Translations under genes and position numbers: made by a program
Shown here: piece after piece, positions 13,853 through 46,678 of the stretch
How positions within the stretch are numbered: position 1 is the first letter of the stretch
Layout of the letters: every line of letters begins with the position of its first letter
Source of the DNA: Elusimicrobiota bacterium
Lineage (GTDB): Bacteria > Elusimicrobiota > Elusimicrobia > Elusimicrobiales > UBA9959
Length of the DNA stretch: 64,000 nt
Reading direction: 5' to 3'
NCBI GenBank assembly: GCA_012517235.1
Contig: JAAYVI010000014.1
Coordinates: 19,266 to 83,265, forward strand
The notes under the pieces: generated by a model
Database searches by the model: none
Told to the model about the DNA's origin: nothing
What the model saw: only the letters and a program-made list of their open reading frames with translations

Positions 13853-13984
13853 AAAAACCTCTTAATAGTAAAATTAAATACCGCATAAACGCGGTTTCAA
13901 ATCAATGATATATTTTATATATTTATAACCTTCAAAAAAAGCATTTTTCAAAGTTTTGCGTAACTTTTTAAGTATAATTGTTTT

Positions 13985-20660: not shown

Positions 20661-21212
20661 TTAAAGGCCGAGCATGCCTTTTTTCAGGTTTTCGTCTGCC
20701 GGTTTTTCGCCCAACCAAACATTTAAAAGAGTTTCGCAAAAATCGGAACCTTTAATTTCTCCCTTTTTTTCTCCGTTATAATAAACTTCCAAGATTTCGT
20801 TTTTGGCAAATATAAACCTGACCAAATCCTTCTTTTTGAGATCGGGTATATAACTTTTAAAAATGTTTAATCTTTCCTTAAGCGAGTTAAAATCTGGGGC
20901 ATTTTTTTTGAAACTTTCTTCTATGGCTTCCGCTATTGTTTTACCTGACACCGAACGCAGAAAAGAAAGTTCCACTATTTTATTTTCTTTGCTTTTGATA
21001 ACCGTATTTGCGTCTTTATTCTTATTTTCCAAATAAAGAGACGCCACATAAACATTAAATACAACCTTTTTTCTAAGACCCATTCCGTTTAAAATAAGAT
21101 TCGTGTCCTTTATCTTAACGGTATCCGGAGAATTAACCCCCATAAATTCAGCCGCAAAAATTCCGCAAATCGAATATGACCATAAAACAACCGCAAAAAA
21201 TATTTTTTTCAT
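20661..21212 (-). CDS. secreted chalcone-isomerase-like family protein
   Basis: 183 aa with a signal peptide and the CHI-like block LILNGMGLRKKVVFNVYVASLYLE. Confidence 0.6.
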   Translation of the reverse strand: MKKIFFAVVLWSYSICGIFAAEFMGVNSPDTVKIKDTNLILNGMGLRKKVVFNVYVASLYLENKNKDANTVIKSKENKIVELSFLRSVSGKTIAEAIEESFKKNAPDFNSLKERLNIFKSYIPDLKKKDLVRFIFAKNEILEVYYNGEKKGEIKGSDFCETLLNVWLGEKPADENLKKGMLGL

Positions 21213-21230: not shown

Positions 21231-21368
21231 CCGATTATTCGATCTCTAATCATCCGATCCTCTGATCATCTAATCTTCCAATCATCCAATCGTCTAATCT
21301 TTTTTTACAATACTTCCACGCATATATACATCCATACATCTCTTTTGCCGCGCGTCCGCGCGTCTATT
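21231..21368 (-). repeat. octamer-phased C-poor intergenic element, copy A (read on the minus strand)
   Basis: The minus-strand reading starts right after the marC stop: AAATAGA, then GACGCGCG GACGCGCG GCAAAAGA. A first block follows (GATGTA TGGATGTA TATATGCG TGGAAGTA TTGTAAAAAAA), then a second (TAGACGAT TGGATGAT TGGAAGAT TAGATGAT CAGAGGAT CGGATGAT TAGAGATC). The 75 nt at 21340->21266 match 43251-43325 at 65/75 positions without gaps (manual alignment). Confidence 0.8.
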
Positions 21369-21965
21369 TCATCCGACTATAAATTTTTTTATTCCGCCCA
21401 AAAGCATCTGAACCGAAATCGTTATAAGTATCATACCCATTAATTTTTCCAAAGCGGCCAAACCCCTGGGCCCGAGGAACTTTGCTATTTTTGAAGACAT
21501 CGCCAGTATGGCGACGTTTATAATCCAAGATATGAAAACTATCAGAAACCATGTCGGCAAATTACCGGGATCTTTCATATTAAAAATTAAAATCGTAGTC
21601 AAAACGGAAGGCCCCGCGACAAGAGGTATGGCAAGAGGAACTATAAAAGGCTCGTTTTCCGAATTTTCGCCTATGGAAGAATGCTGCGAAGGGAAAATCA
21701 TGGATAGAGCTATTAAAAAAAGAACTATTCCGCCGGCTACCGATAAAGAGGGTATGTCTATGGAAAGCAGCCTTACTATCCATTTGCCGAAAAAAAGGAA
21801 AAATATCATTATAAAAAGAGCTATAAAAAGTTCCCTCGTTATAACTTTTATCCTTCTGTTTTCTTCCACGTTTTTAAGAGCGGTTATAAAAAGAGGTATA
21901 TTTCCCAAAGGATCCATTACCAAAGTAAGAGTAAAAACAGCGGACGCTATTTCTATTATATCCAT
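21369..21965 (-). CDS. MarC/UPF0056-family membrane protein
   Basis: 198 aa with six helices and MarC-family blocks (DPLGNIPLFI, PLAIPLVAGPS, LMGMILITISVQML). Confidence 0.8.
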   Translation of the reverse strand: MDIIEIASAVFTLTLVMDPLGNIPLFITALKNVEENRRIKVITRELFIALFIMIFFLFFGKWIVRLLSIDIPSLSVAGGIVLFLIALSMIFPSQHSSIGENSENEPFIVPLAIPLVAGPSVLTTILIFNMKDPGNLPTWFLIVFISWIINVAILAMSSKIAKFLGPRGLAALEKLMGMILITISVQMLLGGIKKFIVG

Positions 21966-28583: not shown

Positions 28584-29945
28584 TCAACCCTTTATTTTGT
28601 TGATAATATCGTTTATACTTTTATTGAAAAAAGGGTCCGTTTGTATCATTTGTAAAACCTTATCTCTGGCAAAAATAACGGTAGCATGATTTTTACCGAA
28701 AGCTTCTCCTATTTCAGGAAGAGATTTATCCGTTAATGTACAAGCCAAATACATCGCAACTTGTCTTGGGAGAGAAATCCTTTCCGCTCTTGTTTTAAGA
28801 TTTATATCGGAAGGGTTTAAATTAAAAGCTTTTGCTACCTCTTCTTTTATTTTATCTATGGAAACATAAATCGAAGAATTATCTCCGGCCGGAATATAGT
28901 CTTTTACGAGATTTTCTACGATATCTATCGACGGATATATATTATTATTTATGCAAAAATGAGCGACATTTGTCACGCAGCCTTTTAAGCTTCTTATGCT
29001 GTCTGTAACTTTTTCCGCTATAAAATTTATCACATCGGAAGGTAAATGAAAATTATTTTTTTCATTTTCTTTGTTTAATATTGCCACTCTTAATTCGTAT
29101 TCCGGTCTTTTTATGTCGGCTATCGCTCCGGTTTTAAATCTTGTTATAAGTCTTTCGTTTAACTCCAAATCATTGGGCGCTTTATCGGAACTTACAACGA
29201 TTTGTTTTTTATATTCGAAAAGACTGTTAAAAGTGTGAAAAAACTCTTCTTCGCTTCTTTCTTTTTTTACTATAAATTGAACGTCGTCTAAAAGAAGACA
29301 GTCTAAAGTTCTGTATTTTGTTCTAAAAGAATCGAATTTGCCTTCCTTTATGACTTGTATAAATTCGTCTACGAAGCTGTCGGCCGATACGTAGAGTATC
29401 TTGGCATTTGCCTTTTTTTTAAGTATTTCGTTTCCTATTGCGTGAAGTATGTGTGTTTTTCCCATTCCCGAAGGAGCGTATACGAAATAAGGGTTTGAAC
29501 TTCCGCCCGGATTTTCCGCCACTTTTTTTGCCATTATAATTGCAAATCTATTGCTTTCTCCCTCGAGAATTTCGTCGAAAGTATAAGAAGGAGAAAGTCC
29601 TGTTTCCGAATAATTTTGTTTTTTTTCCGGAGCCTGGAAAACGGAAAAATTTATTTCTTTTTTAGCTTCGGGTTTTATGGAAATATTAAATTCTATTTTT
29701 ATTTCTCTTCCTAAAATTTCGCTTAAAGAAGAAATAATGGCCGAATCTAAAGAATTTTTCTTTAAATTATCGTAAATTAAAGAATTTGATATTTCGAGTT
29801 TTAAAGTATCGTTTTCAAATAATAAAGGATTTATAGATCTTACCCATAAATCCGTAAGATCTTTACCGGCTTTTGATTCCACTTTATCTAAAGTTAAGTT
29901 CCAAATTTCTTTTAATTGCTGATTGTTTTCCACAATTTTATCCAC
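28584..29945 (-). CDS. dnaA: chromosomal replication initiator DnaA
   Basis: 453 aa with a GTG start. It has the AAA+ Walker A GMGKTHILHAIGNE, Walker B LLLDDVQF, sensor blocks and the C-terminal DNA-binding helix (RQVAMYL, FGKNHATV). Confidence 0.95.
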   Translation of the reverse strand: MDKIVENNQQLKEIWNLTLDKVESKAGKDLTDLWVRSINPLLFENDTLKLEISNSLIYDNLKKNSLDSAIISSLSEILGREIKIEFNISIKPEAKKEINFSVFQAPEKKQNYSETGLSPSYTFDEILEGESNRFAIIMAKKVAENPGGSSNPYFVYAPSGMGKTHILHAIGNEILKKKANAKILYVSADSFVDEFIQVIKEGKFDSFRTKYRTLDCLLLDDVQFIVKKERSEEEFFHTFNSLFEYKKQIVVSSDKAPNDLELNERLITRFKTGAIADIKRPEYELRVAILNKENEKNNFHLPSDVINFIAEKVTDSIRSLKGCVTNVAHFCINNNIYPSIDIVENLVKDYIPAGDNSSIYVSIDKIKEEVAKAFNLNPSDINLKTRAERISLPRQVAMYLACTLTDKSLPEIGEAFGKNHATVIFARDKVLQMIQTDPFFNKSINDIINKIKG

Positions 29946-42409: not shown

Positions 42410-42889
42410 ATGAAGGAAAAAAAACTTAGAATTTATATAGACGGAGGTTCAAGAGGGAATCCCGGTCCGGCGGCATGTTCCGCAGTTATAATGAACGAAA
42501 AAGGAGACGTGATAGGCGAAGAAGGACGTTTTTTGGGAAAAACCACAAATAATGTCGCCGAATATTCCGGTCTTCATTTGGCTTTGACATGCGCGTCAAG
42601 GCTCGGAGCGGATAAGCTGGAGATATACTCCGATTCTCAGCTTTTAGTCAAACAATTTTGCGGCGAGTATAAACTTAAGGACGAAAAACTATCGGAAATG
42701 ATGAAAATAATAAGCAAAGATTTGTCCAAATTTAAAGAAGTTAAGCTAAAATATATAAAAAGAGAAGAAAATAAACTTGCCGATAAACTTGTAAATTCCA
42801 TATTGGATTCTAAAAAATTATCCGATAAAGAAAATTTGAAATTAGCTAAAGAAAGAAGAGAAACTTTCAAGCAGGAAGAACTTTTTTAA
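42410..42889 (+). CDS. rnhA: ribonuclease HI (type 1 RNase H)
   Basis: 159 aa with YIDGGSRGNPGPAA, NNVAEYSGL, YSDSQL and NKLADKL providing the D-E-D-D catalytic set. Confidence 0.85.
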   Translation: MKEKKLRIYIDGGSRGNPGPAACSAVIMNEKGDVIGEEGRFLGKTTNNVAEYSGLHLALTCASRLGADKLEIYSDSQLLVKQFCGEYKLKDEKLSEMMKIISKDLSKFKEVKLKYIKREENKLADKLVNSILDSKKLSDKENLKLAKERRETFKQEELF

Positions 42890-43245
42890 GCGGCGGACGG
42901 AACGTCGCCGCGGACTTTTAGTTCGCGGAGGAACTTCCGGACTTCTCAAGGGAGCGCGCCCGCCGAAAGGCGGGGGACATAAAGGGAAACCTTTATGCCA
43001 CGGAAAGTGCAGCAGAAAATATACCGCCCGCAGAGTAGTTTAAGGCGGGTAAGGGTGAAAAGGCGCGGTAAGAGCGCACCGCTTCGGCGGCAACGCCGAA
43101 GGCAATGAAAACCCCGCGCGAAGCAAGGATAAACATGCGCAGGTCCCCTTGCCGATTGCGCTTATGCGCAAAGCGCAGAGTAATCCGCTCAGATAAATGA
43201 CGTTCGGCCTTAGGGCTACAGAATCCGGGGTATAGTCCGCCGCTT
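42888..43245 (+). ncRNA. rnpB: RNase P RNA (bacterial type A)
   Basis: P1 is formed by AAGCGGCGGAC (42888-42898) pairing with GTCCGCCGCTT (43235-43245). Conserved blocks on the + strand: GGAGGAACTTCCGG (CR-I/P4 5' strand), GGTAAGGGTGAAAAGGCGCGGTAAGAGCGCACCGC (near-identical to E. coli M1 GGUAAGGGUGAAAGGGUGCGGUAAGAGCGCACCGC) and ACAGAATCCGGGGTATAG (P4 3' strand). About 358 nt. Confidence 0.88.
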
Positions 43246-43380
43246 AAATAGATGTATGGATGCATAGATGTGTGGATGTATAGCAAAAAAATATTAGAAG
43301 ATTGGACGATTAGAAGATTAGATGAATAGATGCGTAGAAGTATGGCAAAAAATGAGATTAGATGAATAAAAGAAAAAATA
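43246..43380 (+). repeat. octamer-phased C-poor intergenic element, copy B
   Basis: Block 1 (43249-43291): TAGATGTA TGGATGCA TAGATGTG TGGATGTA TAGCAAAAAAA. Block 2 (43295-43352): TAGAAGAT TGGACGAT TAGAAGAT TAGATGAA TAGATGCG TAGAAGTA TGGCAAAAAA. Only 5 C in 135 nt. It matches copy A at 65/75 positions. Confidence 0.8.
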
Positions 43381-43417
43381 AAAGTTTATAAAAGCATAAA
43401 TAATAAAGGTAAAAAAT

Positions 43418-43690
43418 ATGAAAAAATTATTGGAGAAATTTCCCGAGATAAAATTTTCCGAAGACCCTTCTTCTGTTCCATGGAAAGACGCTTTGGTATG
43501 GTTCTACGAAAAAGAAGGAAAGGAAAAATATTATTGGATTTCCGCCGAAGAAATACTTTACGTATCGTGGTCCGGCGGTTTGCTTTCGGTTATTCCCTCT
43601 TCTTCGTCTCTTTTGAGCAATTATTTCCAGGCCGTTATTTTGCAAGGCGAATCGGTTTTTGTGGGAGCAAAAATAAAAGTATCAAACTAA
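43418..43690 (+). CDS. hypothetical protein
   Basis: 90-aa ORF directly downstream of repeat copy B. No recognisable motif; coding status supported only by length and position. Confidence 0.4.
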   Translation: MKKLLEKFPEIKFSEDPSSVPWKDALVWFYEKEGKEKYYWISAEEILYVSWSGGLLSVIPSSSSLLSNYFQAVILQGESVFVGAKIKVSN

Positions 43691-46052: not shown

Positions 46053-46119
46053 TATTTTTCAATTATATAATAATAAAAGGGTATAAAAAAGTATTTCTCC
46101 TTTTTTTGCCAACCCTTCT

Positions 46120-46138
46120 GTTAACCCTCAGGGTTAAC
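46120..46138. promoter_or_regulatory. GTTAAC-based 19-bp palindrome downstream of the HTH gene / upstream of the OMP-kinase operon
   Basis: GTTAACCCT-C-AGGGTTAAC is a perfect inverted repeat. A third half-site, GAGGGTTAA (46142-46150), overlaps the HTH gene stop. Confidence 0.5.
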
Positions 46139-46146
46139 AGTGAGGG

Positions 46147-46470
46147 TTAATCCCAGCCCATATCTTCCATTTTATCGTCAATCTTGTCATCACTTACATA
46201 GTCAAGGGTCTTTTGGTAGTTATTAACATTTTTGTTGACAAAGCCCCCTTTTTTGTTTATATCTTCTTTTTTTTCCTTTGAAAACCTTGTTGATAAGTCT
46301 TTTTTGTTAATATGTTGTTCGTATGTATGACTTTTATCAACAGGTATAGCCCAATTTCTTCCTATTCTTATGGCCTGTATTTTACCTCTTTTAACTTGCT
46401 TAAATACGGCAATTCTGCTTATTCCCAATTTTTCGGCATATTCCGGTATGGATAGAAATTTTTCATTCAT
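46147..46470 (-). CDS. excisionase/MerR-superfamily helix-turn-helix DNA-binding protein
   Basis: 107 aa. The N-terminus FLSIPEYAEKLGISRIAVFKQVKRGKIQAIRIGRNWAIP is the HTH_17/excisionase-type winged helix. The acidic C-terminal tail has no recognised motif. Confidence 0.7.
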   Translation of the reverse strand: MNEKFLSIPEYAEKLGISRIAVFKQVKRGKIQAIRIGRNWAIPVDKSHTYEQHINKKDLSTRFSKEKKEDINKKGGFVNKNVNNYQKTLDYVSDDKIDDKMEDMGWD

Positions 46471-46474
46471 ATAT

Positions 46475-46572
46475 GTTAACTTATGTTAACCATTATATTA
46501 ACTAAATAAAATTCTGTCAAGACGTATTTGAATTTAAATTCAAATATTTTTTATTAGTTAACTTATGTTAAC
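46475..46572. promoter_or_regulatory. direct repeats and palindrome upstream of the HTH gene
   Basis: GTTAACTTATGTTAAC occurs at 46475-46490 and again exactly at 46557-46572. Between the two copies lies the perfect 22-bp palindrome TATTTGAATTTAAATTCAAATA (46525-46546). Confidence 0.6.
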
Positions 46573-46678
46573 TTACGTATTTAAACAATTATTTCGGTAA
46601 TACATTAGAAAATCCTAAAAAATGCTAAAAATATGGTAGAATATTTTTTCGGCTATAAGCCGGTTTCGGAGGATAAAA

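Follow-up and report, generated by a model that had tools for sequence, protein, structure and literature searches.

The spacer directly downstream of the gene for RNase P RNA in an Elusimicrobiota metagenome-assembled genome (MAG; contig JAAYVI010000014.1) carries an almost C-free array of phased octamers, termed copy B here. It is part of a stretch of 64,000 nt that was analysed as a whole and is referred to as the window. A homologous array (copy A) is present 22 kb away in the same window and a diverged one (copy C) resides just outside of it. With moderate confidence, we interpret these copies as a lineage-specific, slippage-prone dispersed minisatellite comparable to the STRRs (short tandemly repeated repetitive sequences) of cyanobacteria and situated in spacers that are probably transcribed. 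Most likely, the element is ordinary in kind, a new STRR-like, hypervariable family of octamer minisatellites in an Elusimicrobiota species that is uncultured. Its behaviour is that of a dispersed minisatellite and not that of a conserved regulatory RNA such as CsrB. In total, about 95 kb of sequence from the host species was examined; contigs designated by L numbers stem from its strains, from relatives or from other organisms.

The upstream boundary of copy B is formed by rnpB (42889..43248, plus strand), which matches Rfam RF00010 over its full length with 222 bits, codes for a bacterial class A RNase P RNA and lies outside the repeat. The 104 nt following its end at 43248 are made up of phased T-R-G-A-N-G-N-N octamers in two blocks, each of which is closed by T(A/G)GC plus an A-run. 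Block 1 (43249..43291, plus strand; TRF, i.e. Tandem Repeats Finder, period 16/8, and pattern matches) consists of four octamers and a closing unit, and its plus strand reads TAGATGTA TGGATGCA TAGATGTG TGGATGTA and TAGCAAAAAAA, preceded by AAA. Separated from it by TAT, block 2 (43295..43352, plus strand; TRF) comprises six octamers and a closing unit, TAGAAGAT TGGACGAT TAGAAGAT TAGATGAA TAGATGCG TAGAAGTA and TGGCAAAAAA. Directly after block 2, TGAGATTAGATGAATAAAAG opens an A/T-rich tail and leader (TGAGATTAGATGAATAAAAG...AAAGGTAAAAAAT; 43353..43417, plus strand) that reaches up to the start codon of a gene for a protein of 90 aa (43418..43690, plus strand; taken from the list of open reading frames, ORFs), for which Pfam returned no family. 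The composition of 43246-43380 is A64 C5 G33 T33. At the window C frequency of 0.193 the probability of finding five or fewer C in 135 nt is 8e-8, and no other 135-nt stretch of the window has five or fewer C or five or fewer G. Both the count of five C and the layout of the blocks with their closing units had been part of the original prediction, which was made from the letters of this stretch, and both are exact.

Arrays of period 8/16 were reported by TRF at 43248-43283, 43293-43330 and 21244-21301. A pattern of three phased TRGAHGNN units (at most one mismatch) gave nine matches compared with none in 100 shuffles, and its sites in the window are confined to copies A and B; matches to two units numbered 12 versus 0.11 expected, with 11 of them inside these two copies. 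The units are imperfect, have the consensus T-R-G-A-N-G-N-D and a length of 8 nt with a super-period of 16 nt, and form a core of about 60-100 nt. Among 45 units, 34 are distinct, with variation concentrated at positions 2, 5, 7 and 8. At position 2, A occurs 24 times and G 21 times, so that about half of the units contain AGA rather than GGA; in block 1 of copy B the GGA units are spaced 16 nt apart.

Copy A (21241..21342, minus strand; delimited by its sequence, by TRF and by in-register identity to copy B) is located between a marC-family gene and a chalcone-isomerase-like gene and reads GAGATGTA TGGATGTA TATATGCG TGGAAGTA TTGTAAAAAAA GAT TAGACGAT TGGATGAT TGGAAGAT TAGATGAT CAGAGGAT CGGATGAT TAGAGATC. 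A gap-free, in-register comparison of 43251-43325 with the reverse complement of 21266-21340 yields 65/75 identities (87%), and shifting the register of the two copies by 8 or 16 nt in either direction drops this value to 42-50/75. Copies A and B are therefore homologous beyond their common periodicity. The alignment had already been noted in the original prediction, and its conclusion that a repeat family rather than chance low complexity is present holds in the light of the shuffled controls and the shifted registers.

The diverged copy C (L136 7489-7550, 2.5 kb to the left of the window; profile match and sequence) reads TAGCAAACAAGAAAAT TAGAGGAT TGGATGAA TAGAAGAC CGGAAGAT TGGGAAAG CGGAAAAATCG. 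It occupies a divergent intergenic region between genes for a phosphoglycerate mutase and a DUF167 (YggU) protein, where it has the sense orientation of the DUF167 gene and stops 12 nt ahead of the start codon of the latter. A profile built from the cores matches strongly only to copies of the host species, with copy C being recognized weakly (17 bits, L136 7489-7542). The gene downstream of copy A (20661..21212, minus strand) encodes a protein of 183 aa with a signal-peptide-like N-terminus that belongs to the Chalcone_3 family (Pfam PF16036, E = 5e-47), and about 30 nt lie between the end of the array and the start codon. All three copies are intergenic and at separate loci; each closely precedes a start codon on its 5' side, and in each the G-rich strand is sense. 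The earlier statement that copies A and B share the direction of the genes around them is correct; both arrays stop a short distance ahead of the following start codon. According to Pfam, the three downstream genes (Chalcone_3, 90-aa and DUF167) do not have a common function.

Comparison of strains reveals that the arrays are the fastest-changing sequence in otherwise near-identical genomes. The flanks at loci A and B are 98-100% identical between strains, except for the more divergent L134; at locus B, the identity to the window amounts to 99.5-99.7% in L001 and L006 and to 93-95% in L134. Four haplotypes exist at locus B (window, L134, L001 and L006). The window haplotype has two blocks. L134 has a single one, equivalent to the window minus 62 nt with TAGATG at both borders, such that most of block 2 is gone. 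In L001, block 1 is shorter by 17 nt (two octamers and one A of the A-run) and block 2 is split by a GC-rich hairpin of 190 nt, past which different octamers follow. Yet other blocks are present in L006. The A/T-rich tail 43353..43417 is nearly identical in all four, with 5 nt missing in L134. At locus A there are two haplotypes, as L127 and L128 lack 16 nt (two units) of block 1. The indels at both loci are multiples of the unit or are flanked by the repeated hexamer TAGATG, and a clean target-site duplication was not seen at their borders. It had originally been considered that the array might be a decaying minisatellite; a minisatellite indeed agrees best with the evidence, but instead of only decaying, the array undergoes active change.

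The insert in L001 (2704-2893, corresponding to window position ~43330) is predicted to fold into an imperfect hairpin (-78.7 kcal/mol, z = -3.96), is bounded by imperfect terminal inverted repeats of about 19 nt and has the direct repeat AAGCGAGC at both ends. By these features it looks like a miniature inverted-repeat transposable element (MITE), for which neither an Rfam match nor another copy was found in the sequence examined. Four Logan contigs break inside this insert. We had taken such breaks as a possible sign of high copy number and dropped the idea because strain polymorphism explains them equally well. A further insertion of about 2 kb is present in L127 (17244-19232) and absent from the window (~13950-13970) and from L128; it contains two ORFs of 203 and 439 aa without a Pfam family.

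Metagenome assemblies are the source of all sequences under study. The ends of several Logan contigs fall inside the arrays or the insert, and assemblers may mishandle short tandem repeats. In addition, 22 differences set L128 (an ENA contig from sample ERR1876141) apart from the window over 20.5 kb, and every one of them is located in 21301-21600, as in a switch between co-existing strains. This 300-nt patch spans copy A together with the 3'-terminal part of the marC-family gene, with 9 substitutions and 13 gap positions, and is either a recombination tract or an assembler switch between co-existing strains. That the variation as a whole is an assembly artefact or a strain chimera is, however, very improbable. 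The arrays are only about 100 nt long and their units are not identical, such that short reads are expected to span them and k-mers to be unique. Furthermore, ENA contig L460 has the copy B haplotype of the window without any difference, the L001 haplotype recurs in four separate runs (L002-L005) and the L127 haplotype of copy A is also found in L128. Given this reproduction and recurrence, we do not think that the variation arose during assembly.

The strain comparison also bears on a possible coding function. An ATG-initiated frame is open through both blocks in both window copies (25 and 29 codons), and the deduced peptides, MYGCIDVWMYSKKILEDWTIRRLDE for copy B and MYGCIYAWKYCKKRLDDWMIGRLDDQRIG for copy A, look similar. 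It is nonetheless hardly credible that a short peptide is produced, because the likeness follows from the 24-nt (3 x 8) periodicity, a Shine-Dalgarno sequence at a workable distance is missing and the frame stops after 7, 8 and 18 codons in L134, L127 and L001, respectively. In view of these early stops, a small ORF was rejected.

The age of the element at locus B was deduced from three related species (L132, L133 and L456) that were found via homologues of the RNase H gene upstream of rnpB (81, 77 and 69% amino-acid identity, respectively). In the window, this gene (42410-42889, plus strand; ORF list) ends such that the last base of its stop codon is the first base of rnpB. In all three relatives, rnpB follows the RNase H gene and precedes the same 90-aa gene, from which it is separated by only 11, 14 and 16 nt in L132, L133 and L456, respectively. 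In the host species, this gap measures 103 nt (L134), 169 nt (window) or 361 nt (L001). Neither the octamer array nor the A/T-rich tail is present at the orthologous site in the three relatives, and the only Rfam match in the related loci is rnpB itself. Judged from this difference in spacing, array and tail, which make up a species-specific insertion of 169 nt in the window, are shown to be a recent, species-level acquisition.

As an observation in its own right, rnpB is wedged between two protein genes in the window (42410-43690) as well as in L132 (10001-11121), L133 (5429-6563) and L456 (502-1679). Such a tight gene-rnpB-gene arrangement suggests a co-transcribed unit. The start of rnpB at the RNase H stop codon and the 11-16-nt gap to the 90-aa gene further suggest that RNase P RNA may be cut out of an mRNA-like operon transcript in this clade.

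We propose that, in one Elusimicrobiota species, several intergenic spacers received copies following its split from the nearest sampled relatives, and that units and whole blocks have since been gained and lost by replication slippage and by recombination between short direct repeats. Short tandem repeats are indel hotspots in bacteria (PMC12699852). The arrays would also be able to take up other insertions. They would mostly be passengers without a sequence-specific regulatory role, in spacers or leaders for which transcription is probable and in which the G-rich, C-poor strand is the sense one. Possibly, the sense orientation alone is tolerated. Its antisense counterpart has the least structure among the 100-mers of the window and is rich in C and poor in G, which is the signature of a Rho loading site; an inverted array would then place RNA resembling such a site ahead of the gene. 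Selection for lack of structure in the sense strand was considered as well and was rejected, as the sense RNA of copy B ranks only within the least-structured ~10% of window 100-mers and that of copy A is average.

Several points weigh against this interpretation. Positions G3, A4 and G6 are 96-98% conserved among the 45 units (chi-square p = 2e-9), where a neutral array should vary more evenly, although the test is weakened by the fact that the units were picked by the motif itself. Because of this position-specific conservation, a protein-binding role at the RNA or DNA level deserves consideration. The uniform orientation of the three copies, which has a probability of 0.125 by chance, could reflect function, and the ~95 kb examined are a small sample for judging copy number and orientation genome-wide. 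Finally, slippage cannot explain an 87%-identical core at separate loci, and our search produced no mechanism of dispersal.

Dispersal and the presence or absence of blocks would be explained if octamer blocks ending in A-runs were inserted as units, be it by a retrotransposition-like process or by another kind of non-autonomous copying. Every block is closed by T(A/G)G(C/T)A6-7, block 2 of copy B, which is bracketed by TAGCAAAAAAA and TGGCAAAAAA, occurs in the window but not in L134, and loci B and A (the latter in L127) have the junction GCAAAAAA(A)TGAGATTAGA in common; the core common to two loci 22 kb apart points in the same direction. We still regard a small mobile element as improbable, since only three copies were seen, terminal inverted repeats and unambiguous target-site duplications are lacking, neither a reverse transcriptase nor a transposase is linked to the arrays in the sequence examined, and a 62-nt deletion between TAGATG repeats needs fewer substitutions. 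Inverted repeats are absent from 43150-43500 and are represented around copy A only by short A/T-rich chance pairs. A MITE or a repetitive extragenic palindromic (REP)-type repeat was rejected for lack of terminal inverted repeats and of a clean target-site duplication. Within the minisatellite interpretation, dispersal by a copy mechanism or by ectopic gene conversion is conceivable in view of the A-run closing each block and of the junction common to two loci.

The conservation inside the units is also a link to a cis-acting or sponge RNA, in which transcribed URGANG repeats would bind CsrA, by way of the UGGA(U/A/C)G units, or a lineage-specific protein and thereby tune how the downstream gene is translated or how stable its transcript is, with unit number setting the strength. 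The motifs GGAUG, GGAAG and GGACG resemble the repeats of CsrB and the core selected by CsrA in SELEX (systematic evolution of ligands by exponential enrichment) experiments. T1, G3, A4 and G6 are strongly conserved over 34 distinct units, and the 16-nt spacing of the GGA units in block 1 would suit such a function, as would the position of all three copies, sense to and directly upstream of a start codon. Copy B moreover follows rnpB, which is probably highly expressed, with no terminator detected in between. We consider this explanation unlikely. About half of the units offer AGA instead of GGA, three relatives lack the element at the orthologous site, and the haplotypes differ drastically, including a version with a single block and one split by the 190-nt insertion; the downstream genes, as stated, have no function in common. 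A predicted structure of 175 nt of array RNA has a minimum free energy of -10.9 kcal/mol (z = -0.26 versus shuffles) and lacks hairpins that present GGA. Using Rfam 15 at the gathering threshold, the only match in the window is rnpB, and even at E <= 10 no Csr/Rsm family appeared in 43200-43450, where a 14.8-bit chance match to a fungal small RNA was the only result. A tblastn search with CsrA and FliW in the ~95 kb of the host species gave no match, which is weak evidence, and in the literature we found neither a description of this element nor one of CsrA in Elusimicrobia. The suggestion of a CsrB-like sponge or of a conserved leader bound by a GGA-reading protein is consequently not supported: the likeness of the motifs to CsrB is real, but the defining features of a CsrB-type RNA that were tested are missing. 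The more general assertion that no ORF, hairpin, insertion sequence end or Rfam family accounts for the element was borne out by the Rfam searches, folding, the scan for inverted repeats and the strain comparison.

At the DNA level, the arrays could act as contingency loci or phased binding arrays, with octamers serving as operator-like sites or as a variable spacer and with unit number tuning transcription. Unit number differs in 16-nt steps between near-identical strains, the arrays are found just upstream of genes, one of them for a putative exported protein, positions inside the units are conserved and tandem octamer arrays of Geobacter have been annotated as putative regulator sites (PMC2700814). 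This, too, appears unlikely to us. The octamer tracts are located outside ORFs, and the consensus scan found no promoter hexamers in or spanning them; in both arrays and their surroundings, neither a sigma-70-type promoter nor an intrinsic terminator was detected, although the sigma-70 consensus may not be that of the host. At locus B, array and start codon are separated by ~65 nt that hardly vary, so array length changes nothing near the ribosome-binding site there. The units are heterogeneous, whereas classical phase-variable loci contain perfect repeats, and a period of 8 bp would place successive sites on different faces of the helix.

A bolder combination of these ideas has a slim chance of being right: URGANG octamers might be the units recognized by a protein of this lineage that binds single-stranded nucleic acids (CsrA or another one), with the arrays as evolvable expression dials that sit ahead of genes and are retuned by strains in steps of 16 nt, and with the copy fused to rnpB as a titrating RNA that borrows a strong promoter.

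Arrays with a similar period are widespread. Four phased TRGAHGNN units occur at at least 120 loci from many phyla in a collection of species-representative genomes. Among the matches listed are (TGGATGGG)n in cyanobacteria, next to heptamer arrays, and (TGGAAGTA)n in Bacteroidota, often with an inverted partner array, along with matches in Poribacteria, Kiritimatiellia, another Elusimicrobia MAG and a Firestonebacteria MAG. The listed arrays show no strand preference with respect to the ORFs next to them: 20 have the same and 20 the opposite orientation, while 14 are situated between convergent and 10 between divergent ORFs. In viral contigs, 114 matches for the pattern compare with 83 and at least 120 for two permuted patterns of identical composition. 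The core profile of the host species recognizes arrays from other phyla only through the common periodic part. A pan-bacterial family of TRGANG octamers was therefore rejected: without a strand rule, with permuted controls about as frequent and with profile matches limited to the periodic part, we treat the arrays elsewhere as generic minisatellites with 8-nt units and the Elusimicrobiota element as a family specific to its lineage. BLAST searches against plasmids and phages returned nothing relevant.

In metagenomes, a family-specific pattern matched only a single, unrelated organism, with (TGGAAGAT)n(TGGAATCT)n in antisense orientation between ilvB and ilvH. In this acetolactate synthase spacer (L130 4204-4277 and L131 7417-7490), the array reads (TAGAAGAT)2 AAAAAAGAT (TGGAAGAT)3 TAGAAGAT followed by (TGGAATCT / TAGAATCT)7 and also has an internal A-run. 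The arrays of Bacteroidota, Poribacteria and Gemmatimonadota ((TGGAAGTA)n, (TGGACGGC)n) are accompanied by a reverse-complement array 20-50 nt further on; such pairs were seen in L021, L036, L100, L012, L110, L112, L114 and L120. They are predicted to form long tandem-repeat hairpins, an architecture unlike that of the single-stranded Elusimicrobiota arrays.

With regard to orientation, a leading-strand bias was considered, because copies A and B fit such an orientation around the skew minimum near 41 kb. Copy C does not, and its orientation implies that the arrays follow the gene and not the direction of replication. DnaA boxes, which only one unit resembles, as well as KOPS (FtsK orienting polar sequences) and Chi sites were likewise tried and rejected. 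Concerning the replication region itself, dnaA-dnaN-dciA-gyrB-gyrA-marC are encoded on the minus strand of the window and parAB at 61-63 kb; the GyrA protein corresponds to record NLI09317.1. The cumulative GC-skew minimum near 40-42 kb is about 11 kb away from dnaA (28584-29933), and gene orientation switches at ~41.65 kb, where rpmB is on the minus and the next gene on the plus strand. Skew minimum and orientation switch at this distance indicate that the replication origin may not adjoin dnaA.

Elsewhere in the window (46110-46580), GTTAAC-containing repeats (CTGTTAACCCTCAGGGTTAACAGTGAGGGTTAA, TATGTTAACTTATGTTAACC, TAGTTAACTTATGTTAACTTA) are present at both ends of a small minus-strand gene. 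In related loci this gene encodes a protein of 103-107 aa with a faint HTH_17 match, and the repeats look like candidate operator sites of an autoregulated DNA-binding protein.

If our interpretation is true, the arrays are a clean natural example of the fast invasion of probably transcribed spacers by a short-unit repeat in a streamlined bacterial genome. They could serve as a strain-typing marker for this digester-associated species and are a warning that metagenome contigs can break or turn chimeric at such sites. Should the conservation of the units reflect a binding protein, they would represent a new class of cis-regulatory repeats in a phylum without genetics.

Comparison with known systems helps to place the element. 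Like CsrB, RsmY and RsmZ, the arrays combine many repeated GGA(U/A/C)G-like motifs in a non-coding stretch. They differ from these RNAs in having no hairpin presentation, no promoter or terminator consensus of their own and no Rfam match, in that half of the motifs are AGA, in not being kept in relatives, in being hypervariable between strains and in residing as three copies in mRNA leaders or spacers rather than as one discrete gene. With variable-number tandem repeats and contingency-locus repeats of pathogens they have in common unit-number polymorphism in near-identical strains, likely slippage and a location next to gene starts. Unlike those, the Elusimicrobiota units are imperfect and outside an ORF or a recognizable promoter spacer, and the same array is dispersed to several loci. 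Geobacter metallireducens contains multicopy families of tandem heptamers and octamers at ~16-49 dispersed sites with 3-5 units per site (PMC2700814), resembling our arrays in the dispersal of tandem 7-8-nt units; their outer units are poorly conserved and insertion sequences are found nearby (PMC2700814). In Geobacter, most sites form pairs on opposite strands, with GTTGCTYN and TCTCCGTS as the consensus units (PMC2700814), whereas the Elusimicrobiota arrays are single, longer, strand-asymmetric (C-poor) and strain-variable. Cyanobacterial STRRs, for which roles in transcript stability or translational coupling have been proposed (PMC2670836), likewise are built of short units in tandem and are scattered over many sites, mostly intergenic ones, within one lineage (PMC2670836), and a passage citing Vioque 1997 places them within rnpB of heterocyst-forming cyanobacteria (PMC2858038). 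STRR units are mostly 7 bp in length and able to form hairpins, in contrast to the units of 8 nt with a 16-nt super-period described here, which are strongly heterogeneous, closed by A-runs, hairpin-free and outside rnpB. What the Elusimicrobiota element has in common with STRRs are head-to-tail units of less than 10 nt, homologous copies at separate intergenic loci and unit-number polymorphism between close strains.

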